A stretch of 64,000 bases of DNA from Candidatus Eiseniibacteriota bacterium (GTDB taxonomy: Bacteria; Eisenbacteria; RBG-16-71-46; JABDJR01). The position numbers and the translations under genes were made by a program. This document shows, piece by piece, positions 3,763-49,627 of the stretch. The notes beneath the pieces were generated by a model. It had not been told where the DNA came from and searched no databases. It saw only the letters and a list, made by a program, of their open reading frames with translations. The stretch covers positions 624,406-688,405 of the forward strand of contig CAVYIE010000004.1 of NCBI GenBank assembly GCA_963768615.1. Direction: 5' to 3'. Positions within the stretch are counted from its first letter, which is position 1, and every line of letters starts with the position of its first letter.

Positions 3763-4739
3763 ATGACCACGCCGTTCACCTACGTGCGGCCGAAGAGCGT
3801 GGACGAGGTCATCCGGCATCTTGGGGCCGGGAATGCCCGCGTCCACGCCGGCGGGACCGATCTGCTCGGTTGCCTGCGCGACGGGGTCTTCACCGCGGAC
3901 ACGGTGGTGAGTGTGACCGGGCTGAAGGAGCTGAAGGGACTCGGGGAGACGCCGGAAGGGGGGCTGCGGCTCGGCGCCCTCGTTCCCGTGGCCGAGGTCG
4001 CGGAGAACAAGCTGGTGGCCGGGCGCTGGCCGGCCCTGGCCCAGGCCGCGGGGGCGGTGGCCAGCCCCCAGCTCCGGAACCAGGGAACGATCGGAGGCAA
4101 CCTCTGCCAGAAGCCCCGCTGCTGGTACTACCGGGGGGATTTCCCCTGCCTGCGGAAGGGTGGCGACCTCTGTTACGCCTACCAGGGCGAGAACACCTAT
4201 CACGCCATCCTGGGCGGGGGGCCGTGCTTCATCGTCCATCCCTCCGACACCGCCTCCGCGCTGGTGGCCTACGACGCCGCGGTCACCGTGGCCGGGCCCA
4301 AGGGGACCCGCCGGGTGCCGGTGGCGGAGCTGCACGTTTCTCCGTCGGTGGACCCGCAGCGGGAGACGGTGCTCGCTCCGGATGAGATCCTGACCGAGGT
4401 CCTGGTTCCGCCTCCGCCGCCCGGCACCCGGAGCCGCTACCGCAAGGTGCGCGCGCGCCAAGCCTGGGACTTCGCCCTGGCCGGAGCGGCCCTGGCCGTG
4501 ACCCTGGACGGGGACCGGGTGGCCCGGGCCCGGGTGGTGCTCTCCGGGGTGGCGCCGGTGCCCTGGCGGTCGGCGCCGGCGGAGCAGGCCCTGGTGGGGG
4601 AGCGGCTCACCCCGGAACGGCCGCCCGCGCCGCCGAGGCGGCGGTGGCCGGCGCCGAGCCCCTGGCCCAGAACGCCTACAAGGTGGAGCTGGTGAAGGGG
4701 ATGCTGGCCGCGGAGCTGGAGGCCCTGGCCCGGGGGTAA
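3763..4739 (+). CDS. FAD-binding subunit with PaoB-type 4Fe-4S Cys motif; -1 frameshift near 4619-4620
   Basis: AGGTDLL, QLRNQGTIGGNLCQKPRCWYYR...C...C...HAI...C motifs; adding one G restores ERAARAAEAAVAGAEPLAQNAYKVELVKG to TAA 4737-4739. Confidence 0.9.
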
Positions 4740-26664: not shown

Positions 26665-27749
26665 TGCTCTACCACCTCCTCTATCCCCTCCACGAGATCT
26701 TCTCGCCGCTGAACGTCTTCCGGTACATCACCTTCCGCGCCGCCTACGCCACGGTGACCGCGCTCCTCCTCTGCTTCATCTTCGGGCCGCCGCTGGTGCG
26801 CCGGCTCCGGCAGTTCAAGATCCGGCAGATCATCCGCCAGGAAGGGCCGAGTTCCCACAAGACCAAGGCCGGCACCCCGACCATGGGCGGGATCCTCATC
26901 GTGGCGGCCATCGTGGTTCCCACCCTCCTCTGGGCGTCGCTGGTCAACCGCTACGTGCTGGTGGCGGTGGGGGTCACCCTCGTCCTGGGCGGGCTGGGCT
27001 TCCTCGACGACTATCTCCACGTGGTCCGGCGCACCCCCAAGGGGCTCCTCGGCCGCTACAAGCTGGTGGTCCAGGTCGCGGTGGGCCTGGCGGTGGGCGC
27101 CTTCCTCTACCTGTTCCCGGTGGACCCCAACTTCGGCACCGCCACCACCGTTCCCTTCCTCAAGAACCACCTCCTGGACCTCGGGCTCTGGTACATCCCC
27201 TTCGTGGCCCTGGTCATCACCGCCACCTCCAACGCGGTGAACCTGACCGACGGGCTGGACGGCCTGGCCTCGGGGCTCATGGCCCTGGCCGCCGCCGCCT
27301 ACGCCGGGCTGGCCTACGTGAGCGGGAACGTCCGCCTCGCCGGCTACCTCAACATCCCCTACTTCGCGGGGAGCGGCGAGCTGGCCATCTTCTGCACCGC
27401 CATGTTCGGGGCCGCCCTGGGCTTCCTCTGGTTCAACTCCCATCCCGCCGACGTGTTCATGGGGGACACCGGGTCCCTGGCCCTGGGAGGCGCCCTGGGC
27501 ACGGTGGCGGTGATGCTGAAGAAGGAGCTGCTGCTGTTCCTGATCGGGGGGATCTTCGTGGCCGAGGCCCTCTCGGTGATCATCCAGGTGGTCTCCTACA
27601 AGCTGCGCCACAAGCGGGTCTTCCGCATGGCGCCCATCCACCATCACTTCGAGCTCAAGGGGTGGCCGGAGTCGCGGGTGGTGGTGCGTTTCTGGATCAT
27701 GGGGGTGCTGCTGGCCCTCCTCAGCCTGTCCACCCTCAAGCTGCAGTGA
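26664..27749 (+). CDS. mraY: Phospho-MurNAc-pentapeptide transferase MraY
   Basis: GTPTMGG, LDDY, NAVNLTDGLDGLA, VFMGDTGSL and MAPIHHHFE motifs. Confidence 0.96.
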   Translation: MLYHLLYPLHEIFSPLNVFRYITFRAAYATVTALLLCFIFGPPLVRRLRQFKIRQIIRQEGPSSHKTKAGTPTMGGILIVAAIVVPTLLWASLVNRYVLVAVGVTLVLGGLGFLDDYLHVVRRTPKGLLGRYKLVVQVAVGLAVGAFLYLFPVDPNFGTATTVPFLKNHLLDLGLWYIPFVALVITATSNAVNLTDGLDGLASGLMALAAAAYAGLAYVSGNVRLAGYLNIPYFAGSGELAIFCTAMFGAALGFLWFNSHPADVFMGDTGSLALGGALGTVAVMLKKELLLFLIGGIFVAEALSVIIQVVSYKLRHKRVFRMAPIHHHFELKGWPESRVVVRFWIMGVLLALLSLSTLKLQ

Positions 27750-27769
27750 CCGGGGAAGGAGCGACGGCG

Positions 27770-29164
27770 ATGGCGGAACGCGGCGACCGGACGGCCTCCT
27801 GGCGGGGGCGGAGCGTGGTCGTGCTCGGCCTGGCCCGGAGCGGCCGGGGCGCGGCCCGGCTTCTGGCCCGCCACGGGGCCCGGGTGGTGGCCGCCGATCT
27901 CAAGCCCGCCGCGGACCTGGGGCTGGACCCGGAGGCCTTCGCCGCCGCCGGGGTGGACCTCCGCCTGGGCGGTTTCGATCCCGCCCTCTTCGAGGGCATG
28001 GACCTGGCCGTGGTGAGCCCGGGAATCCCCAAGGATGCGCCCATGGTGGCCGAGGCCCTCCGGCGCGGCATCCCGCTCCGGAGCGAGCTGGACGTGGCCG
28101 CGGAGTTCGCCGCCGCCCCCCTGGCCGTGGTCACCGGGACCAACGGCAAGAGCACCACGGTGACGGTGCTGGGGGCGCTCATCGACTCCCTGGGGGTGCC
28201 GGTGGCGGTGGCCGGAAACGTGGGCACGGCCCTCTCGGAGGTGGTGGAGTCGGTGCCCGCCCACGGGGCCCTGGTGGTGGAGGCGAGCTCCTTCCAGCTC
28301 GAGGACGTGGAGGCGCTCCACCCCCGGGCGGGGGCGATCCTGAACCTGACCCCCGACCACATGGACCGCTACCGCTCCCTGGAGGAGTACCTGGCCGCCA
28401 AGCTCCGCCTCTTCGAGCGCATGGGGCTCGGGGATACCGCCGTCCTTCCCGCCGACGACCGCCGGCTCCTGGCCGCCGCCCCCGCCGGCGCCCGGCTCCT
28501 CACCTTCGGCACCGGGGAGACGGTCTCGGACGGGGTGGCGCTCCGGGACGGGGTCCTGGCCCGGGTCACCGGGGGGAAGGCCTACCCGGTGCTGCCCGCC
28601 GCCGACCTCTCCCTCAAGGGCCCCCACAACGTGGCCAACGCCGCCGCCGCCCTCTGCCTCCTGGACGGGCTCGGCTTCGACCTCTTCGATCCCCGGGTGG
28701 CCGGATGCCTGCGAGCGGTGCGGGGGCTTCCCCACCGGCTGGAGCCGGTGGGGGAGGTGGACGGCGTCCCCTTCTTCAACGACTCCAAGGCCACCAACCC
28801 CGAGTCCCTGGAGGTCGGCCTCCAGGCCTTCCCGGGGCGGGTGGTGCTGATCGCCGGCGGGCATCCCAAGGGCGGGGACTACGCCCGGCTGGCCCCCCTG
28901 GTCGGGCGGTACGTGGCCGAGGCGGTGCTGATCGGGGAGGCCGCCCCGCTCCTGGAGACGGCCTGGGCCGGGGCCAACGTGCCCCTCCATCCGGCCGGGA
29001 CCGACTTCGAGGCCGCGGTGCGCCTGGCCCTGGACCGGGCGCGGGAACGGGGGGTGCCGGTGCTCCTCTCCCCGGGGTGCGCCTCCTTCGACATGTTCCG
29101 CGACTACGAGGACCGGGGGGACCGGTTCCGGGCCCTGGTCCGCGCCTGGGAGAAGGCATCGTGA
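27770..29164 (+). CDS. murD: MurD ligase
   Basis: GLARSG, VTGTNGKSTT, SSFQL, NDSKATN and SPGCASFDMF motifs. Confidence 0.95.
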   Translation: MAERGDRTASWRGRSVVVLGLARSGRGAARLLARHGARVVAADLKPAADLGLDPEAFAAAGVDLRLGGFDPALFEGMDLAVVSPGIPKDAPMVAEALRRGIPLRSELDVAAEFAAAPLAVVTGTNGKSTTVTVLGALIDSLGVPVAVAGNVGTALSEVVESVPAHGALVVEASSFQLEDVEALHPRAGAILNLTPDHMDRYRSLEEYLAAKLRLFERMGLGDTAVLPADDRRLLAAAPAGARLLTFGTGETVSDGVALRDGVLARVTGGKAYPVLPAADLSLKGPHNVANAAAALCLLDGLGFDLFDPRVAGCLRAVRGLPHRLEPVGEVDGVPFFNDSKATNPESLEVGLQAFPGRVVLIAGGHPKGGDYARLAPLVGRYVAEAVLIGEAAPLLETAWAGANVPLHPAGTDFEAAVRLALDRARERGVPVLLSPGCASFDMFRDYEDRGDRFRALVRAWEKAS

Positions 29165-30356
29165 AGCGACTTCAGCAGTTCCGCCGGCTGGCGGCCTCCG
29201 TGCTCCGGGGTGAGATCGAGCCCCCGACCCTGCTCCCCCCGAGCTCCGGGGGCGGGGCTGGGACAAATGGCTGGTGATCGCCACCCTGGTCCTGACCGGC
29301 TTCGGCCTGATCATGGTCTACTCGGCCACCACGGTGACCGCCTCCCGCCCCAGCGCCTACGTGGAAAACCAGGCGTTCAAGGTGCTTCTGGGCATCGTCG
29401 CCTTCGCCATCGGGCTCCGGATCGATTATCATCGTTGGGGTCGGTGGGCCCCCTGGTTCTACCTGGGCGGCCTCGTCCTCCTGTTCCTGGTCTACGTGCC
29501 GGGGTTGGGACATTCCGCGGGACATGCCCGCCGATGGATCAACATCGGCGGCTTCACCGTTCAGCCGGCGGATTTCGCCAGGCTCGGCCTCGTGGTCTAC
29601 CTGGCCTACCTGCTGTCGAAGCCGAGGGCGCGGCTTCAGCGTTTCACCACCGGGGTGCTCCCGTGCGTGGTGGCGCTGGTCCTCATGGCCCTCCCGGTGG
29701 CGAAGCAGCCCAACCTGAGCACCACCCTGGCCCTGGCCGCGATCACCGGGATGATGCTGATCGCGGGACGGATTCCGTTCCGGCATCTGGCCGTCCTGAT
29801 GTCGCCGGCGGCGATCGTGCCGTTCTTCCTGCACGGGTACCAGTGGAACCGGCTCCAGTACTGGCTGTCCTACTGGCGGGGGCACGAGCTGCTCCGGGAG
29901 GGGAACTATCAGATGCACCAGTCCATCCTGGCCATCGGGTCGGGGGGACTGCTGGGACGGGGGCTGGGCGAGAGCCGGCAGAAATGGTTCTTCCTGCCCG
30001 ACGCCCACACCGACTTCATATTCGCGATCGTAGGAGAAGAGCTTGGACTTCTGGGAGCGGTCTTATTGATCGGACTGATCGTGGTCCTTCTGTGGCGCGC
30101 CTATGACGCCGCCCGTCGGGCCCCGGATCGATTCGGATCCCTGTTGGCCGTCGGCATCGGGGCCACGGTGGCGGTCTACGCCGGAGTGAACCTCCTGGTG
30201 GCCACGGGCATGTTCCCGACCACCGGCCTCCCGCTGCCCCTGGTGTCCTACGGCGGTTCCGCCGTCCTGGTCATGCTCTTTTCCCTGGGAATTCTCGGCA
30301 ACGTTTCCAGCCAGGGCGATTCCTCGCTGCTGGCCGGAATTGGAGAGCAAGACTAA
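29161..30356 (+). CDS. ftsW: FtsW (SEDS family); -1 frameshift in the C6 run at 29235-29240
   Basis: GLIMVYSA, ARRWI, QPADFA, LPDAHTDFIF and LPLVSYGGS motifs; adding one C joins GTG 29161 to the main frame. Confidence 0.92.
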
Positions 30357-32627
30357 ATGTCCGAAGAACGCAACCAAGAGCCGGGAGCGGGATCCGGCGG
30401 ATCCGAGAACGCTTCCGAAGACCGGCCCCGGGGAACCCGGCGGCGCCGGCGCCGCGGACGCCGCGGCTACGAAGGACGACCGGAATGGCAGGGGGGAGAG
30501 GGCGGGGGATCCGAAGCCTCGGGCGGCGGACGGGAGAGCCGGAGAGAGAGCGCATCCGGAGGGGGCGGCGAGCCGGCCCCGGACCGCGGTGACCGTCCCT
30601 CCCGGGCTTCCGGCCGCGGGTCGGGCGGCGGCGGCTCCGAGGCCCCGGCGCGGGAGGCGACGCGCTCCGCCGGGGAGCGGGCCCCCCGGTCCGAGGATCG
30701 GGACCGGAACCGGGGCGAGGAGCCGGCCGGGGCCGGCGGCCGTTCCCGGGAAGGCGGCGAGGAGGCCCGCGAGGGCCGCCGTCCCCGCCGCCGGGGCGTG
30801 CGCCGCCGGCGCGGAGCTTCGAGCGAAGGTGAGCCGGGCGCGGCCGGGGCCGCGGCCGGGGCGTCCCCGGCGGAGACCGGCGGGGAGCGGCCGGAGGAAG
30901 GAGCCGGGGACCGGCGCGGCGAGCGCCGGGACCGGGAGGAGCGCCCGGCGGCGGAGGCCGCGGGCGAAGCCGGGAAGGGGGCTCCCGGGAGCGAGGGCGA
31001 GCGGGGCGAGTCCGGCGGGCGAGAGCGCCGGCGCCGTTCCCGCCGGCGGCGCTCCCGGGACCGGAGCGGGTCCGAAGGCGGAGAGAGCCGGGGCGGCGAC
31101 GAGGATCGCCCCGCAGAGGGGGGCCGGTCCTCGACGGCGGCGGCCCCTGCCGCCTCGGGCGAGGAGCCGGCCGACCGGAGCCGGCGGCGCCGGTCCGGCG
31201 AGCCGTCCCGGGATCGCGATCGCGGCCGGGACCGGGACCGGGACCGGGACCGGGACCGCGGCCGGGAGCGGAGCGGCTCCGGCCGCGACAGCGCCTCCCG
31301 CGGCGGTTCCCGGGACGCCCGCAGCCGGAGCGGGGGACGGAGTGACCGCGGTGAGCGCGGCGGGGGACGCCGGCCCTACGGCGGCCGGCAGGGGGCCTCG
31401 CGGCCCCAGCCCCTGCGGCCCACCGCCGCCCTCACCCTCCCCCCCCAGCCGGTGCGGGTGATGATCGCCGGCGGCGGGACCGGGGGGCACATCATCCCCG
31501 CGCTCTCCATCGGCGAGGCCCTCAAGCAGCGGAACCCCGCGACCGAGCTGCTCTTCCTGGGCAGCGACCGGGGCATCGAGCGGGAGATGATCGGGGAGGC
31601 CGGACACCGGCTGGAGGAGTTCCCGGTCCGCGGGCTGCCGCGGCGTCCGGACGCGGACTCCTTCCGCAACGCGTTGGCCATGTTCCGGGCCTATCGCCGC
31701 ATCCGCCGGCTGATCGACGAGTTCAAGCCGGGGGTGCTGGTGGGCACCGGCGGCTACGTGATCGTCCCCGCGGTGATCGCGGCCTGGCGGGCCAAGGTTC
31801 CGGTGGTGCTCCAGGAGCAGAACAGCGTGCCCGGCCGGGCCAACCGGTTCCTGGCCCGCTTCGCCCGGGAGATCCACATCCACTTCGCCGAGTCCCGCCG
31901 GTACTTCAAGGGCCGGGGACGGCTGCGGCTCTCCGGGAACCCGGTGCGGGTCAAGATCTCCGAGGGCCGGGCGCTCAAGACCCTGAGCCGGCTGCGGCTC
32001 TTCTCCGACCGGCGCACGGTGCTGATCCTGGGCGGATCCCAGGGGGCCCACAGCCTGAACGTGGCCTTCATGGACATGCTCCCCCGGTTCCGGGGCGACC
32101 GCACGGTGCAGTTCGTGATCCAGACCGGCAAGGAGGATTACGAGGCGGTGCAGGAGGCGGTGCGAGCCTCGGGAGTGCGCGCGGTGGTACGCCCCTTCTT
32201 CAACGAGATGGAGGAGCTCTACGGCATCGCCAACCTGGTGGTGGGCCGGGCGGGGGCGATGACCATCTCCGAGATCTCGGCCTGCGGCCTGGCCAGCATC
32301 CTGGTTCCCTATCCCCACGCCATGGACGACCACCAGACCGCCAACGCCGAGGCCCTGGCCGGCAAGGACGCGGCGGTGATCCTCCGCGACGCCGAACTCA
32401 CCGCGGACCGTCTGGCCGAGGAGATCCGCAAGCTCCTGGCCGACCCGGCCCGCCTCCGGGGCATGGCCCGGAACGCCTTCGCCCTGAGCCGTCCCGACGC
32501 GGCCAAGCGGATCGCGGAGGCGGTGGAGAAGCTGGGGGGCGGCGCTCCCCAGTCCATGCTCCACCTGCCCGAGGAATACGACACCGAGGACGAAGAGGCC
32601 GAGACCGAGGAAGCGGGGGTGCGCTAG
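30357..32627 (+). CDS. murG: MurG with a 365-aa low-complexity N-terminal extension and acidic C-terminal tail
   Basis: MurG core from about 31452 (IAGGGTGGH, EQNSVPGRAN, GGSQGA, RAGAMT, VPYP...HQ); ATG directly follows the ftsW TAA with GGAGAG upstream. Confidence 0.92.
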   Translation: MSEERNQEPGAGSGGSENASEDRPRGTRRRRRRGRRGYEGRPEWQGGEGGGSEASGGGRESRRESASGGGGEPAPDRGDRPSRASGRGSGGGGSEAPAREATRSAGERAPRSEDRDRNRGEEPAGAGGRSREGGEEAREGRRPRRRGVRRRRGASSEGEPGAAGAAAGASPAETGGERPEEGAGDRRGERRDREERPAAEAAGEAGKGAPGSEGERGESGGRERRRRSRRRRSRDRSGSEGGESRGGDEDRPAEGGRSSTAAAPAASGEEPADRSRRRRSGEPSRDRDRGRDRDRDRDRDRGRERSGSGRDSASRGGSRDARSRSGGRSDRGERGGGRRPYGGRQGASRPQPLRPTAALTLPPQPVRVMIAGGGTGGHIIPALSIGEALKQRNPATELLFLGSDRGIEREMIGEAGHRLEEFPVRGLPRRPDADSFRNALAMFRAYRRIRRLIDEFKPGVLVGTGGYVIVPAVIAAWRAKVPVVLQEQNSVPGRANRFLARFAREIHIHFAESRRYFKGRGRLRLSGNPVRVKISEGRALKTLSRLRLFSDRRTVLILGGSQGAHSLNVAFMDMLPRFRGDRTVQFVIQTGKEDYEAVQEAVRASGVRAVVRPFFNEMEELYGIANLVVGRAGAMTISEISACGLASILVPYPHAMDDHQTANAEALAGKDAAVILRDAELTADRLAEEIRKLLADPARLRGMARNAFALSRPDAAKRIAEAVEKLGGGAPQSMLHLPEEYDTEDEEAETEEAGVR
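31227..31256 (+). repeat. (CGGGAC)x5 in-frame tandem repeat encoding (Arg-Asp)5
   Basis: Read directly from the sequence. Confidence 0.9.
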
Positions 32628-38314: not shown

Positions 38315-38362
38315 TCGGGCCCGGCCCGAACACCAGCGGTCAAACCCGGACGGAGGGCGAAG

Positions 38363-40009
38363 GTGTCGTTCCTGAGCCGCGTATTCGGGCGGTGGGGGAA
38401 CCCCCATTACGCCCGGGGGATCATGCACTTCAACCGCCGCGAGTACGCGGAGGCGGTGGCCGAGTTCGAGGCGCTCCTGGCCGAGAGCCGGGATCCCTCG
38501 AACCCGGACGTGGAGCTGGCCCGGTTCTACTCCGCCGAGGCCCACACCAAGCTGGGCCTGGCCCTGTACCGCAAGGGGGACTACGAGCGGGCGGAGGAGC
38601 AATTCCGCGCCGCCCTGGAGGTGGAGGACAGCTACCCCGACCTCCACTACTACCTGGCCGTGCTGGCCGAGCGCCGGGGGCTTCCCGCCGAGGCGCGGCC
38701 CCACCTGGACCGGGCCCTGGAGCTCAATCCCCGCTACGTGGAGGCCCTGGCCTACCGGGCCATCGTGCACGAGGCGCTGGGGAACTCCGAGGCCGCCGGG
38801 GCGGATCTCCGGGCGCTGTCCGCCCTGGAATTCCAGCTTCCCCCCTCCATCAATCTCCAGTCCCGGGCCCCCCTCCCCACCCACGCCCTGGAGGACCTGC
38901 GGCGGGCGGTGGAGGACCGGAGCCGGGACGACGACCACCTGACCCGGGCCCTGGAGGCCTACGACCGCGGCGACCTCGATGCGGCCCGGGAGGCCCTGGA
39001 GACGGCGGTGGAGGAGAAGCCCGCCTACGCCGACCTGCGCTGCCGCTACGGGCAGGTCCTGGCCGAGCTGGGCCGCCACCAGGCCGCGGTGGCCGCCTTC
39101 GACGCCGCCCTGGAGCGGAATCCCGACTACATGGAGGCCCTGCTCTCCCGGGGACGGTCGCTGCTGGTCCTGGACCGCCCCACCGAGGCCCTGGGCTCCT
39201 TCCGCCACGCCGCGGGGCTCCGGCCCGGCTATGCCGACGTGGCCTGCTACGAGGGGGAGGCGGCGCTCCGGGCCGGCCGCCCGGGGGAAGGCGCCGAGGC
39301 CCTGACCCGGGCCCTCGACCTCAACCCGGGCTTCGCCCGGGCCCGGTTCGTCCTCGGCCAGGTGAAGCTGGCCCTGGGTGACCGTGAGGGGGCCCTGGTG
39401 GAGCTGCGCCGGGCCCTGGAGGCGGACCGGAAGCTCAGCCCCGCCTACCTGGGAGCGATCCACCTGGACCGGGGGGAGTTCTCCGACGCGGTGGAACTCC
39501 TGGCCGCGGCGGTGGAGGTCCATCCCGACTACGCCGATCTCCGGGTGCAGCTGGGGCTGGCCCACCTGGGCTCGGGGCGGGTGGACGAGGCCCGGGAGCA
39601 GTTCGCGGCCGCGGCCGGGATCCACCCCGGCTACGTGATGGCCCACGTGAACCTGGGAAAGACCGAGGTCCGGGCCGGACGCCCCGCGGAGGCGGTTCCC
39701 CACCTGGAGCGGGCCCTGGCCCTGGAGCCCAAGCTGGCCGACGTCCACCGCCTCCTGGGGGAGGTGCGGATGGCGTTGGGGAACGACGGCGGGGCCGAGG
39801 AGTCGTTCGTGGACGCCCTGGCCCTGAACCCCAACTACGCCGACGCGCTGCTCGGCTTGGGCATGCTCCGCCGCCGCCAGGGGCGGGACGCGGAGGGCCG
39901 CAAGCTCATCGAACGGGTCTTGGAGCTGGCCCCGGGGAACCCGGTGGCGCTGGCTCTCCTGGGACGGATCGAGGGGGGAGGGGGAGCGGAGGCGTCGGAG
40001 GCGGGTTGA
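38363..40009 (+). CDS. TPR-repeat protein
   Basis: More than ten TPR-like units with recurrent P-x-Y-A-D-L turns; GGAGG RBS; 48 bp after ftsZ. Confidence 0.85.
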   Translation: MSFLSRVFGRWGNPHYARGIMHFNRREYAEAVAEFEALLAESRDPSNPDVELARFYSAEAHTKLGLALYRKGDYERAEEQFRAALEVEDSYPDLHYYLAVLAERRGLPAEARPHLDRALELNPRYVEALAYRAIVHEALGNSEAAGADLRALSALEFQLPPSINLQSRAPLPTHALEDLRRAVEDRSRDDDHLTRALEAYDRGDLDAAREALETAVEEKPAYADLRCRYGQVLAELGRHQAAVAAFDAALERNPDYMEALLSRGRSLLVLDRPTEALGSFRHAAGLRPGYADVACYEGEAALRAGRPGEGAEALTRALDLNPGFARARFVLGQVKLALGDREGALVELRRALEADRKLSPAYLGAIHLDRGEFSDAVELLAAAVEVHPDYADLRVQLGLAHLGSGRVDEAREQFAAAAGIHPGYVMAHVNLGKTEVRAGRPAEAVPHLERALALEPKLADVHRLLGEVRMALGNDGGAEESFVDALALNPNYADALLGLGMLRRRQGRDAEGRKLIERVLELAPGNPVALALLGRIEGGGGAEASEAG

Positions 40010-40243: not shown

Positions 40244-40381
40244 GATCGAACTCCTTTTCCGGACCGGGCCCCGACCTGGACCCGGCGCAAAGCCGGAAGA
40301 GCGTAGCACACCCCGGGTCCGCACTCAACCGGCGGATGGCGGCCGTTGTCAGCGCCCCGGCCCCGCCCGTACCCTGTCTCC

Positions 40382-42532
40382 ATGATCCCCACCGCCCCCC
40401 CTCCCGGCCCTCCCGAGACCGCCCCGGTGACCGTCCTGGCCGGGGTGGGGAAGACCGCGGCCGAGGCCCTGGAGCGCCTGGACGTCCGGACCCTGGAGGA
40501 CCTCCTCCGCCACTATCCGGTCCGGTGGGTGGACCGGCGCGAGATCCGCCCCCTGGGCGGGTTCACCCGGGCCGACGCCGCCGCCATGGAGCAGGGAGAG
40601 GACGGCCGGGTCCGGAAGGCGGTGTTCACCACCCTGGGCACGGTGGCCCGGGTGGAGAAGAAGGGGTTCAAGAAGTCCGAGCGCCTGGTGGTCACCCTCA
40701 CCGACGGCACGGGATCGGTGCCGATGGTCTTCTTCGGCGGGGTTTGGCGCCGCTCCCAGTTCCAGCCGGGGGACAAGGTCCTGGTCTCGGGCCCGGTCGG
40801 CTGGTACCGGGGCGGCGCCCAGTTCACCTCCCCCGAGTACGAGCTCCTGACCGACCTCGAGGAGAGCGAGATCCACACCGGCCGGCTGTACCCGGTGTAT
40901 CCGTCCACCCGGGGGGTCTCCCAGCGGAACCTCCGGACCTGGGTGCGGGCGGCCCTGGAGCGCACCCTCCCCACCCTGGCCGACCCGCTGCCGGAGGAGA
41001 TCCGCCTCCGCTACAAGCTGCTCCCCCTGGGCCCCGCCCTGGAGGGGATCCACTTTCCCGCCTCGCCGGAGGCGCGGGACGCCGCCCGCCGCCGGCTGGC
41101 CTTCGAGGAGATCTTCCTCGACCAGCTCTTCGTCCACGCGGTGCGGCTGCGGCGGGACCACGGCAAGGTGGCGGAGCGGATCCCCGGCCACGGCCCGCTC
41201 TTCCGGCGGATTCGGGCCTCGCTTCCCTTCCGGCTCACCCCCGACCAGGACCGGGTCCTGGACGAGATCCTCGAGGACCTGGACTCGGGACGGCCCATGA
41301 ACCGGCTGCTCCAGGGGGACGTGGGCTCGGGGAAGACGGTGGTGGCCTTCCTGGCCGCGGTGGCCGCCGCCGACGCGGGCATCCAGACCGCGTTCATGGT
41401 GCCGACCGAGATCCTGGCCGAGCAGCACCTGCGCAACCTCCGGGAGCTGGGCGCCCCCTTCGGGCTCGAGCCCAGGCTCCTGACCGGGAGCCTGAGCGGC
41501 CCCGCCCGGCGCGAGGTGCTGCGGGGGCTGGCCGACGGGAGCACCCCCCTCGTGGTGGGAACCCACGCCCTGTTCCAGGACGAGGTGCGCTTCCACCGCC
41601 TGGGCCTGGTGGTGGTGGACGAACAGCACCGCTTCGGGGTCATGCAGCGGGTGGCGCTCCTGGAGAAGGGCTCCGCCCCCCACGTGCTGGTCATGTCGGC
41701 CACTCCCATCCCCCGCAGCCTGGCCCTGGTCCGCTACGCGGACCTGGAGCTCTCGGTGATCCGCCACCGCCCCGCCGGCCGCGGCCGGGTGATCACCCGG
41801 GTCACCCCGGAGCACAAACGGCCCGCGGTCTACGAGTTCCTGGCCGAACGATTGCAGGAGGGACGCCAGGCTTTTATCGTTTATCCTCTGGTCGAGGAGT
41901 CGGAGAAGTCGGATCTCAAGGCGGCCGCGGTCATGGCCAAGCGCCTGGCCGCCCGCCCGGAGTTCCGGGGGTTCGGGGTGGCCCTGCTCCACGGCCAGAT
42001 GAAGCCGGAGGAGAAGGAGGCGGCCATGGCCCGGTTCGTCTCCGGCGAGATGCGGGTGCTGGTGGCGACCACGGTGGTGGAGGTGGGCATCGACGTGCCC
42101 AACGCCTCCTTCCTGATCATCGAGCACCCGGAGCGCTACGGGCTGAGCCAGCTCCACCAGCTCCGGGGCCGGGTGGGCCGGGGGAGCCACACGTCCTATT
42201 GCGTCCTCATGCTGGGCGAGAAGCTGGACCCCGGGACCCGGGAACGCCTGGAGCGGTTCGCGGCCATCGAGGACGGGTTCGCCCTGGCCGAGCTCGACCT
42301 GTCCCTCCGTGGCCAGGGCGACGTGGCCGGAGTGCGGCAGAGCGGCCGGCCGGGCTACAAGCTGGTCGATCCGCGCCGCGACGTGAAGATGATCGAGGTG
42401 GCGCGCACCGAGGCGCGCCGGGCGCTGGAAGGGGATGCCTTCTCCGGCGGGTGGGGTCCGGACTGGGAACCGCTCCGGAGACGCCTGCGGGCGCTGCTCG
42501 AGGCGGCGGGCCCCCTGGTGGACGCGGGTTGA
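40382..42532 (+). CDS. recG: ATP-dependent DNA helicase RecG
   Basis: RRLAFEE, LQGDVGSGKT, VDEQHRFGV, MSATPIPR and SQLHQLRGRVGRG motifs. Confidence 0.96.
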   Translation: MIPTAPPPGPPETAPVTVLAGVGKTAAEALERLDVRTLEDLLRHYPVRWVDRREIRPLGGFTRADAAAMEQGEDGRVRKAVFTTLGTVARVEKKGFKKSERLVVTLTDGTGSVPMVFFGGVWRRSQFQPGDKVLVSGPVGWYRGGAQFTSPEYELLTDLEESEIHTGRLYPVYPSTRGVSQRNLRTWVRAALERTLPTLADPLPEEIRLRYKLLPLGPALEGIHFPASPEARDAARRRLAFEEIFLDQLFVHAVRLRRDHGKVAERIPGHGPLFRRIRASLPFRLTPDQDRVLDEILEDLDSGRPMNRLLQGDVGSGKTVVAFLAAVAAADAGIQTAFMVPTEILAEQHLRNLRELGAPFGLEPRLLTGSLSGPARREVLRGLADGSTPLVVGTHALFQDEVRFHRLGLVVVDEQHRFGVMQRVALLEKGSAPHVLVMSATPIPRSLALVRYADLELSVIRHRPAGRGRVITRVTPEHKRPAVYEFLAERLQEGRQAFIVYPLVEESEKSDLKAAAVMAKRLAARPEFRGFGVALLHGQMKPEEKEAAMARFVSGEMRVLVATTVVEVGIDVPNASFLIIEHPERYGLSQLHQLRGRVGRGSHTSYCVLMLGEKLDPGTRERLERFAAIEDGFALAELDLSLRGQGDVAGVRQSGRPGYKLVDPRRDVKMIEVARTEARRALEGDAFSGGWGPDWEPLRRRLRALLEAAGPLVDAG

Positions 42533-48122: not shown

Positions 48123-48196
48123 ATGCACCAGAGGCGGATCCCGCCACGCGTGGATCCAGGTGAAGAGGGCTCCAGGGAACCAAGGGGGTTCGTCCC

Positions 48197-49627
48197 ATGG
48201 TCGTCGTGTCTTACTCGGGGAAAGAGATCAACGCCAAGCTGGTCTATTACGGTCCCGGACTCAGCGGGAAGACCACCAACCTCGAGTACATCTACCAGAG
48301 CGTGCCCAACAGCAACCGGGGCAAGATGGTCTCCATGAAGACCCGGACCGAGCGCACGCTCTTCTTCGACTTCCTGCCCGTGGACCTCGGGGAGATGGGC
48401 GGGTTCAAGACCCGGTTCCTTCTCTACACCGTGCCCGGCCAGGTCTATTACAACGCCACCCGGAAGCTGGTGCTCCGGGGGGTGGATGCGATCATCTTCG
48501 TGGCCGACTCCGCCCGGGGGAAGATGGACGAGAACCTCGAGTCCCTCCGGAACCTCCACGACAACCTCAAGGAGTACGGCCTTTCCCTCGACGAGATCCC
48601 CTTCGTGGTCCAGTACAACAAGCGGGACATCGAAGACGTGTACAGCGTCGAGGAACTGGAGCAGGCCCTGAACCCCACCGGGGCGCCCTACTACGAGGCG
48701 GTGGCCACCACCGGTCAGGGCGTATTCGAGACCTTCCGCGGCATCGCGCGGGTCCTGCTCCAGAAGCTCAGCAAGGAGATCAAGGTGGGCGAGGGACGCA
48801 GCCTGGAGGCGAAGTCGGCCGCGTTGGCGAGCCCGGCCGAGCCTGCGGCCCCGGGACGGAAGACGGAGGCGCCGGCCCCCGTTCCCCCCGCTCCGGCCCC
48901 CGTCGCCGAGACTCCTTCCTTTACCAAGCCGCCGCGGCCGGAGTTGGTCCGGGCCTCGGAGCCCGTTCCCGTGCCGGAGACCCAGGCGGGCCCGGTCCGG
49001 GGCGCGGAACCGGATCCGGAACCCCGGCCCGAGGCGGAAACCGAGCCCCTGGGGGCCGGGGACGGGGCCCAGGAAACCCCGGCCGAGACCCCCGCTCCGG
49101 CTCGCCGGTCCCCCTACGGACCGCCCCGCCGGCCCGCCTCGCCGCCCGCGCCGGAGCCCCGGGCTCCGGAGCCGGTCGCGGAGGAGCATGCGGAACCCGG
49201 GAAGCCCGCCCCGGCGCCGGAGGCGGTGGAGGCCCGGCCGGAACCGGCCCTCCCCAGCCCGCCCGAACCGGTGCGGGAGCCCGAGACCGTCACCGCGCAG
49301 CAAAGGACCGCCATGGCCGCACGCCCCCGACCCGACTCCGCCGCCGACCCCGAGGAGCGCCCCGGCTTCTGGGGCCGTCTCTTCGGCCGCGGGAACAAGG
49401 AAGAGCAGGGAGCCGGCGCCTCGCCGGCGACCCGGGAAGCCCGCCTGGCCCCGGTGGAGCTGCCCGCGGTGGGCGGCTCCGGGGACGCCTCCCCGGTGTT
49501 CATCGAGCGCCGGATCCAGGTCCCGATCACCCTCGGGCCCGAGGAGATGGTGCGGGGAGCGCGGCTCCGGCTGGTGCTGGAGATCCAGGTGGAGGCATCC
49601 GGCGAGTCCGGGAGCAAGGTGGCCTGA
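48197..49627 (+). CDS. mglA: MglA-family small GTPase with a long Pro/Glu/Ala-rich C-terminal extension
   Basis: EINAKLVYYGPGLSGKTTNL, RTLFFDFLP, LYTVPGQVYY and NKRD motifs; about 280-aa tail containing GFWGRLFGR. Confidence 0.9.
   Translation: MVVVSYSGKEINAKLVYYGPGLSGKTTNLEYIYQSVPNSNRGKMVSMKTRTERTLFFDFLPVDLGEMGGFKTRFLLYTVPGQVYYNATRKLVLRGVDAIIFVADSARGKMDENLESLRNLHDNLKEYGLSLDEIPFVVQYNKRDIEDVYSVEELEQALNPTGAPYYEAVATTGQGVFETFRGIARVLLQKLSKEIKVGEGRSLEAKSAALASPAEPAAPGRKTEAPAPVPPAPAPVAETPSFTKPPRPELVRASEPVPVPETQAGPVRGAEPDPEPRPEAETEPLGAGDGAQETPAETPAPARRSPYGPPRRPASPPAPEPRAPEPVAEEHAEPGKPAPAPEAVEARPEPALPSPPEPVREPETVTAQQRTAMAARPRPDSAADPEERPGFWGRLFGRGNKEEQGAGASPATREARLAPVELPAVGGSGDASPVFIERRIQVPITLGPEEMVRGARLRLVLEIQVEASGESGSKVA

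Follow-up and report, generated by a model that had tools for sequence, protein, structure and literature searches.

The 64,000-nucleotide window analysed here (positions 624,406 to 688,405 of contig CAVYIE010000004.1, assembly GCA_963768615.1, Candidatus Eiseniibacteriota bacterium) carries division and cell wall (dcw) genes in the order mraY-murD-ftsW-murG-murC-murB-ftsQ-ftsA-ftsZ, followed by genes for a TPR protein and RecG. Its murG encodes a predicted lipid II synthase preceded by an arginine-rich extension of 365 residues that, judged by comparison with related loci, is real and, within Candidatus Eisenbacteria, conserved in a single clade. The ftsW stop codon TAA (30354-30356) touches the murG ATG, with no gap between the genes; the two share a reading frame over 29274-32627, with that one TAA between them. 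A previous account of this DNA, made from the letters and their open reading frames (ORFs) and called here the sequence-only reading, had described a single frame running into MurG from an ATG immediately after the last codon of ftsW and preceded by GGAGAG, and the frame lies exactly there. In agreement with that account, inspection of the window sequence found no purine-rich Shine-Dalgarno sequence before the internal GTG/ATG (VRVM) of the MurG core, and the acidic C-terminal tail it had noted is present, ending in ...LPEEYDTEDEEAETEEAGVR.

Profile, motif and structure comparisons identify the core as a canonical MurG with a predicted two-domain GT-B fold. It matches TIGR01133 at 309.1 bits (cutoff 250.25) over residues 366-722, and matches to PF03033 (121 bits) and PF04101 (137 bits) cover both Rossmann-like domains. 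The G-loop GGGTGGH lies at residues 372-378, the RAGAMTxSE and HQxxNA motifs are found in the core, and columns R631, G633, E639, Q660, N663, and A664 are invariant in a 33-sequence alignment. The core aligns end to end with PDB 3s2u, 1f0k, and 7d1i, and residue by residue with 3s2u; in an AlphaFold2 (AF2) model its predicted local distance difference test (pLDDT) score is mostly >90, with alternating beta and alpha elements in two halves. The window protein thus shares the full two-domain GT28 core and the position between ftsW and murC with the enzymes of E. coli (1F0K), P. aeruginosa (3S2U), and A. baumannii (7D1I), but canonical MurG proteins have 355-400 aa, and this one adds 365 disordered N-terminal residues and a conserved acidic tail. 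The solved structures comprise 364-365 aa and lack any such extension, which fits the figure of about 360 aa given earlier for a typical MurG.

The extension (residues 1-365) consists of R (24%), G (21%), E (13%), S (11%), A (11%), P (7%), and D (6%); hydrophobic residues account for 2%. Its fraction of charged residues (FCR) is 0.43, its net charge is +23, and its aromatic residues are two Tyr and one Trp. It contains six Arg runs of at least three residues, four to five Arg clusters, and the repeat RDRDRDRDRDR at residues 291-301, so the earlier description of a stretch made almost wholly of R/G/E/S/A/D with Arg runs and (RD)5 is accurate. Tandem Repeats Finder (TRF) also detected a 15-nt tandem duplication (31026-31057) inside the third Arg cluster. 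With the 33-sequence alignment as input, AF2 gives residues 1-348 a pLDDT <50 and no secondary structure. Charge patterning was scored as a segregation z against shuffled sequences for 12 extensions: the window gives +0.75 within a range of -4.1 to +1.7, four of the 12 are significantly over-mixed (z -3.5 to -4.1), in none is segregation above the shuffles, and sequence charge decoration (SCD) does not differ from that of the shuffles. A blocky-charge reading of the RNase E type is rejected by these statistics. The extension is a well-mixed, Arg-rich polyampholyte, predicted to be intrinsically disordered.

A length-restricted search for long MurG proteins (719-810 aa, core identity 59-77%) recovered P0002, P0004, P0005, P0007, P0008, P0009, and P0012. 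The closest organism-labelled relatives (L002 and L004) are Candidatus Eisenbacteria metagenome-assembled genomes (MAGs), as is every organism-labelled member of the clade with N-terminal extensions. One of them (L004) has an intact ORF of 797 aa, and the same P0002 sequence (759 aa) is encoded in two assemblies, once on a contig of 2 Mb and once on an independent Logan contig. The sequence-only reading had proposed looking for the extension in MurG orthologues of the lineage; this was done, and 11 lineages carry extensions of 334-424 aa with 21-27% R, 0-3% K, an FCR of 0.41-0.49, and a net charge per residue (NCPR) of +0.01 to +0.11. These bulk properties are held although pairwise identity between the extensions is 45-80% or none. 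The more distant P0029 has an extension of 196 aa and similar composition.

In the 33-sequence alignment three islands of the extension are conserved: a distal peptide, M(S/T)D(E/D)...RRRR(R)xRRGY(E/D/Q)GxPEW, in nine lineages; one or two inner poly-Arg clusters; and a clade-wide motif just ahead of the core, (H/Q)PLKPT..L(T/M)(L/M)PPxP(V/I)RV. The remainder is unalignable between relatives, and the middle is built of lineage-specific tandem repeats (RD, PERGDR, RRDEMRRDEARP, PREDRPPRDDR, SRGDAPREMREPG, and REPRGE). The C-terminal tail is also found throughout the clade, as GGGAPxxxL(H/N)LPEEYD followed by acidic residues.

Two database entries appear to depart from this pattern. The product of L245 (JGI Ga0074470_11488149) is deposited as a protein of 419 aa (P0010); the ~1.08 kb 5′ of this call (L245:2927-4000) is open in the same frame, is R/E/P/G-rich, and encodes a 381-aa extension whose ATG lies 9 nt after the ftsW stop. 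P0010 is, on this sequence evidence, a gene-caller truncation of a longer MurG. In L002 (Nanopore MAG MFD02923.bin.2.9), a 1-base deletion at 3990-4010, beside a C7-8 run that encodes LPPQP, splits murG into ORFs of 330 aa and 391 aa; because L001, a short-read near-twin, is in frame, the frameshift is most likely a homopolymer error. With one such gene truncated by a gene caller and another split at a C homopolymer, databases under-report the architecture.

The open frame by itself is not beyond chance. The extension DNA is 83% GC, with 55 T in 1095 nt, and 9% of its mononucleotide shuffles remain open; a second plus-strand frame (30340..31461) and an antisense frame of 1313 aa are open too, making three open frames of six. 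Unlike the core, the extension has a high GC content at every codon position, so the contrast between positions is weak. Translation therefore had to be judged from relatives. Nucleotide-level alignment of the L003 and L004 extensions was noisy, with indels that were not multiples of three, and was replaced by protein-guided codon alignments, from which the ratios of nonsynonymous to synonymous substitution (dN/dS) of this low-complexity sequence were taken. Between L083 and L084 dN/dS is 0.25 in the extension and 0.05 in the core, and between L003 and L004 it is 0.29 and 0.09; in both pairs four of the five other frames give 1.6-2.2, and the frame signature in the extension equals that of the core. 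Synonymous divergence is similar in the two parts (dS 0.42 in the extension and 0.38 in the core for L083/L084), and numerous indels between orthologues, across 12 lineages, leave the murG frame intact in these alignments. An ATG at or beside the ftsW stop, with GGAG(A) 6-10 nt upstream, is found in 10 of 10 loci. The 45 nt that follow the ATG have a GC content of 0.64, compared with 0.81 over the next 300 nt, and no comparable dip occurs before the core. A drop in GC content after the start codon is typical of initiation regions.

The extension is thus very probably translated as part of MurG, as judged from sequence evolution, and an additional shorter MurG may arise by internal initiation. 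The alternative is that translation of MurG actually begins at the internal GTG/ATG and that 30357-31451 is a GC-rich spacer left open by chance, which the surviving shuffles, the multiple open frames, the weak codon-position contrast, and the internal start chosen by a gene caller in P0010 would all favour. Against it stand the codon-periodic substitutions with dN/dS of 0.25-0.29 in the murG frame, the frame-preserving indels, the conserved peptide motifs, and the Shine-Dalgarno sequence and ATG conserved at the ftsW stop with none ahead of the core. Largely refuted by the dN/dS values and by the conservation of motifs and start site, non-translation is essentially excluded on comparative grounds, and we consider it highly improbable. 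A hidden RNA gene or separate transcription unit within the extension was also rejected: an Rfam scan returned only a sub-threshold chance match (Moco-II, E = 0.14), and promoter and terminator scans found no signals inside it. The 1313-aa minus-strand ORF, considered as a possible antisense gene, also runs across murC and the genuine murG core, with both of which it shares wobble positions; it was rejected as a high-GC artefact. Coordinates of the features are collected in Table 1.

Table 1. Features of the murG locus (window positions) and the evidence for each
Feature	Coordinates	Strand	Evidence
ftsW (SEDS family)	29274..30356	+	PF01098, 315 bits
Shine-Dalgarno sequence GGAGAG, 9 nt 5′ of the murG ATG	30342..30347	+	Sequence read
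murG ORF, 756 aa plus stop, ATG start	30357..32627	+	ORF list, hidden Markov model (HMM) matches
Disordered N-terminal extension, aa 1-365	30357..31451	+	Composition, AF2 pLDDT, dN/dS in relatives
Conserved distal peptide RRRRRRGRRGYEGRPEW, aa 28-44	30438..30488	+	Aligned in 9 lineages
Arg cluster 2, RRPRRRGVRRRR, aa 141-152	30777..30812	+	Aligns with RRRRRGRRRGRGR-type clusters of relatives
Arg cluster 3, RERRRRSRRRRSRDR, aa 221-235	31017..31061	+	Composition, alignment
(RD)n repeat, CCGGGA x10.7, peptide RDRDRGRDRDRDRDRDRGRER	31208..31271	+	TRF
Conserved pre-core motif PQPLRPTAALTLPPQP, aa 350-365	31404..31451	+	Clade-wide alignment; pLDDT up to ~61
MurG catalytic core (GT28), aa 366-729	31452..32543	+	HMMs, motifs, AF2, PDB alignment
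Conserved acidic C-terminal tail APQSMLHLPEEYDTEDEEAETEEAGVR	32544..32624	+	Alignment of the N-extension clade

An exhaustive HMMER search with the core covered 1.84 billion cluster representatives, of which the best 150 matches were inspected. A long N-terminal extension occurs among these in P0002 only; a few have C-terminal additions (P0125, 522 aa; P0128, 478 aa), the P0124 gene call is probably truncated, and the rest have 355-400 aa. A second group of MurG proteins, with 47-50% identity to the window core and with organism-labelled members that are also Candidatus Eisenbacteria (L165, L166, and L167), carries its R/G/acidic region at the other end: the C-terminal 100-270 aa, in which a distal RRRRRRRG and an acidic patch just after the core are usually present (P0013, P0014, P0021, P0023, P0025, P0026, and P0031). 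In a maximum-likelihood tree of the cores, proteins with N-terminal extensions form a monophyletic clade (support 100/98), most of those with C-terminal regions form a separate one (99/98), and P0021 and P0128 are isolated further cases of the C-terminal type. Arg-rich disordered regions have therefore arisen repeatedly on MurG within this section of the tree. At least one Eisenbacteria MurG in the tree (L085) has no added region; it was the only new Eisenbacteria locus among the matches listed in a profile scan of genome contigs with a 13-sequence alignment.

The junction with ftsW varies within the clade. In the window, L081, L082, L004, and L002, a single stop separates ftsW from murG, which share a frame; two pathway proteins are thus not joined in one polypeptide in the window, where TAA separates the genes. 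In L003 (binchicken_co342_17, 2740-2800), CAG stands where the sister locus L004 has the ftsW stop TAG, and a single ORF of 1201 aa encodes FtsW, the intrinsically disordered region (IDR), and MurG; this fusion is either real or the product of a sequencing error. L083 and L084 have overlapping genes in different frames (gTGATG), the two frames also differ in L245, and in L246 a spacer of 57 nt separates them. Readthrough of the single stop, where there is one, would give an FtsW-MurG fusion protein.

These features together suggest that the extension is a genuine, translated, disordered, and clade-conserved part of MurG that works as a flexible tether or spacer, a reading to which we give an even chance of being correct. 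Length is kept while sequence turns over, and the distal peptide is conserved. The arrangement of distal peptide, length-constrained linker, and folded domain resembles that of FtsZ and by analogy favours a tether. The disordered C-terminal linker of FtsZ is one in which length and flexibility matter more than sequence, and it ends in a conserved docking peptide. The layout of folded domain, length-constrained variable linker, and short conserved terminal peptide is the same in MurG, but the polarity is reversed (the MurG peptide is N-terminal), the region is far more Arg-rich, and the carrier is an enzyme rather than a cytoskeletal protein. In such a mechanism the distal Arg-rich peptide would bind, on the inner side of the membrane, a partner that is either anionic or a protein; this might be a negatively charged phospholipid, a component of the divisome or elongasome (FtsW, for example), or the conserved acidic tail of a second MurG molecule. 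From its anchor, a long well-mixed chain of ~365 residues could let the core roam over ~10-20 nm (random-coil estimate), and tethering might thereby keep MurG concentrated beside MraY and FtsW without a rigid complex. A link to FtsW would fit the shared frame of ftsW and murG and the single ORF in L003.

Several observations weigh against this reading. The function of the extension is deduced from its anatomy alone, and high GC content together with slippage can keep a low-complexity composition without function. The window and L081, its closest relative, give dN/dS of 0.67 in the extension and 0.36 in the core, in a pair that is near saturation and barely alignable; the antisense frame that shares wobble positions gives 0.30-0.32, a mimicry seen in the core also; and protein-guided alignment pulls dN/dS slightly toward the murG frame. 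The distal peptide is degenerate in the deeper branches P0012 and L245. Searches of 5.8 billion proteins with the N-terminal 60 residues and with the whole extension returned the query alone, because low complexity and rapid evolution put the extension beyond the reach of sequence search, and no relatives of the distal peptide were detected outside these MurG proteins. The fusion in L003 is possibly a sequencing error because coverage of its contig is only ~4.7x.

A different role, as a condensate or scaffold, is unlikely in our estimate. The region would then drive self-association, or coacervation with RNA, polyphosphate, or anionic lipids, or pairing of poly-Arg with acidic tails, to form a membrane-associated cluster for lipid II. 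Its ~24% Arg, ~21% Gly, and FCR of 0.43 would suit such a role; the poly-Arg clusters and the conserved acidic LPEEYD tail could pair in trans, and Arg-rich regions have been acquired at either MurG terminus. The charge is not blocky in any of the 12 extensions, however, four being over-mixed, and aromatic "sticker" residues are almost lacking. Well-mixed polyampholyte charges favour expanded, soluble chains. MurG has been described as an oligomeric scaffold in one published report (PMC6420597), which counts in favour. The sequence-only reading had suggested that the extension organizes lipid II synthesis in a condensate or scaffold or couples MurG to RNA or another polyanion; the scaffold part is still viable in view of the anatomy of distal peptide, linker, and enzyme, whereas the condensate and RNA/polyanion parts, which were drawn from composition only, are so far unsupported. 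A broader proposal takes in both MurG groups: Eisenbacteria would repeatedly have attached an Arg-rich polyampholyte of 100-420 aa with a distal poly-Arg anchor, at the N- or C-terminus, as a leash or cluster that organizes lipid II synthesis, either as an FtsW-MurG tether (non-covalent, or covalent in L003) or as a membrane-bound MurG assembly held by contacts between poly-Arg and acidic tails. We regard this proposal as speculative and probably not correct as a whole.

Neutral growth of low-complexity sequence, in which a translated region expands by slippage and GC pressure at a permissive MurG terminus and selection maintains only solubility or harmlessness, is to be rated as quite unlikely. 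It would account for the lineage-specific tandem repeats found throughout (among them RD, PERGDR, RRDEMRRDEARP, and SRGDAPREMREPG) and for a turnover so fast that the extension alone finds no homologues, and an MglA-like gene elsewhere in the window also has a ~100-aa P/E/A-rich stretch. It does not readily explain why length is kept at 334-424 aa across deep branches, why conservation extends to the terminal peptide, the pre-core motif, and the acidic tail, or why dN/dS is 0.25-0.29; moreover, MurG is the only one among the neighbouring dcw proteins to have such a region, in several genomes, and similar MurG regions arose independently in the sister clade. There is little probability, finally, that the extension arose as the disordered linker of an FtsW-MurG chimera that is now split and joined only at times, or is in the course of becoming such a linker; readthrough or loss of the stop would then give a covalent tether between MurG and the shape, elongation, division, and sporulation (SEDS) protein. 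The shared frame and single stop at five loci (the window included) and the sense codon in L003 speak for a linker, FtsW-MurG domain fusions exist in other lineages, and Mur chimeras with disordered linkers of 200-300 aa have been published (PMC10214165). The out-of-frame junctions of L083, L084, and L245, the spacer in L246, and the low coverage of the L003 contig speak against it, as does the conserved Shine-Dalgarno sequence and ATG, which indicates independent initiation of murG. A flexible tether on MurG is the reading favoured here.

Comparable regions are known on other bacterial proteins. Condensate-forming disordered regions include the C-terminal domain of Caulobacter RNase E, with blocky charge, and Rho proteins with N-terminal insertions. 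Like these, MurG is a housekeeping protein with a long, highly charged, Arg-rich disordered region; unlike them, it has well-mixed charges rather than alternating blocks, and it has no RNA-related domain. The published Mur chimeras comprise MurE-MurF with disordered linkers of 200-300 aa, MurG-MurC, MraY-MurG, and MurD-FtsW (PMC10214165). They share with the window protein a long disordered segment on an enzyme of peptidoglycan precursor synthesis, and in L003 ftsW and murG likewise form one frame, but the MurG region in the window is a free terminus with its own Shine-Dalgarno sequence and ATG after a stop codon. In mycobacteria, FtsQ has an Arg/Ala-rich, membrane-anchoring disordered N-terminal region (PMC10036325) and FtsK a positively charged N-terminal extension (PMC13277299); anchoring to the membrane or to a partner has been proposed for these regions. 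The resemblance is that of a lineage-specific, positively charged disordered N-terminus on an envelope or division protein; FtsQ and FtsK are integral membrane proteins with shorter regions, whereas MurG is peripheral and its polyampholyte is ~3-4 times longer. Extracytoplasmic disordered regions are described on PBP1 and RsgI (PMC9732909).

Full-text searches of the literature turned up no account of a MurG that has a long disordered terminus, in keeping with the sequence-only reading, whose author knew of none, and nothing on the cell biology of Eisenbacteria. Candidatus Eisenbacteria is an uncultured soil phylum. MurG is an essential and almost universal enzyme and a target of antibiotics; there is debate about what keeps it close to MraY, the flippase, and the SEDS polymerases, with recruitment dependent on MreB or FtsZ, lipid preference, and oligomeric scaffolds all under discussion. 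What is new here is a canonical enzyme carrying an undescribed, lineage-conserved disordered module. The selection-maintained MurG region in one clade and the region at the opposite end of the protein in a sister clade amount to a natural experiment and suggest that tethering or clustering of MurG is advantageous. The distal poly-Arg peptide, linker, and acidic tail form a tractable module, and if the leash or cluster proposal is true they would represent a previously unknown spatial coupling of precursor synthesis to a SEDS polymerase.

MurG is joined to other proteins in a variety of lineages. PF01098 and MurG domains occur together in P0039, P0070, and P0106, and further fusion proteins were recovered in the length-restricted search (P0047, P0094, P0113, and others). 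MurG fusions in other lineages involve MurC (Mur ligase domains), an FtsQ-type POTRA domain (PF08478), and MurB (PF01565/PF02873); one protein of 1301 aa combines MurG with MurJ-like (PF03023) and HEAT domains.

Elsewhere in the window, the ten neighbours scanned (nine dcw genes and recG) have ordinary domain content and ordinary size, and the neighbours of murG in the dcw clusters of relatives are likewise ordinary. The murD ORF (27662-29164, GTG start, 500 aa) begins ~50 residues before the MurD-like N domain, and its first 88 nt overlap the end of mraY; translation of murD may in fact start further downstream. Directly 3′ of ftsZ is a gene for an all-TPR protein of 554 aa (38345-40006), followed by recG (40367-42529); in the relative L081 a 550-aa gene follows ftsZ, its position kept relative to that of the window TPR gene. 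The Pro/Glu/Ala-rich stretch of the MglA-like gene (48164-49627) spans residues 269-369 of the stop-to-stop frame and has few hydrophobic residues; it is acidic and Pro-rich, whereas the MurG extension is Arg-rich.

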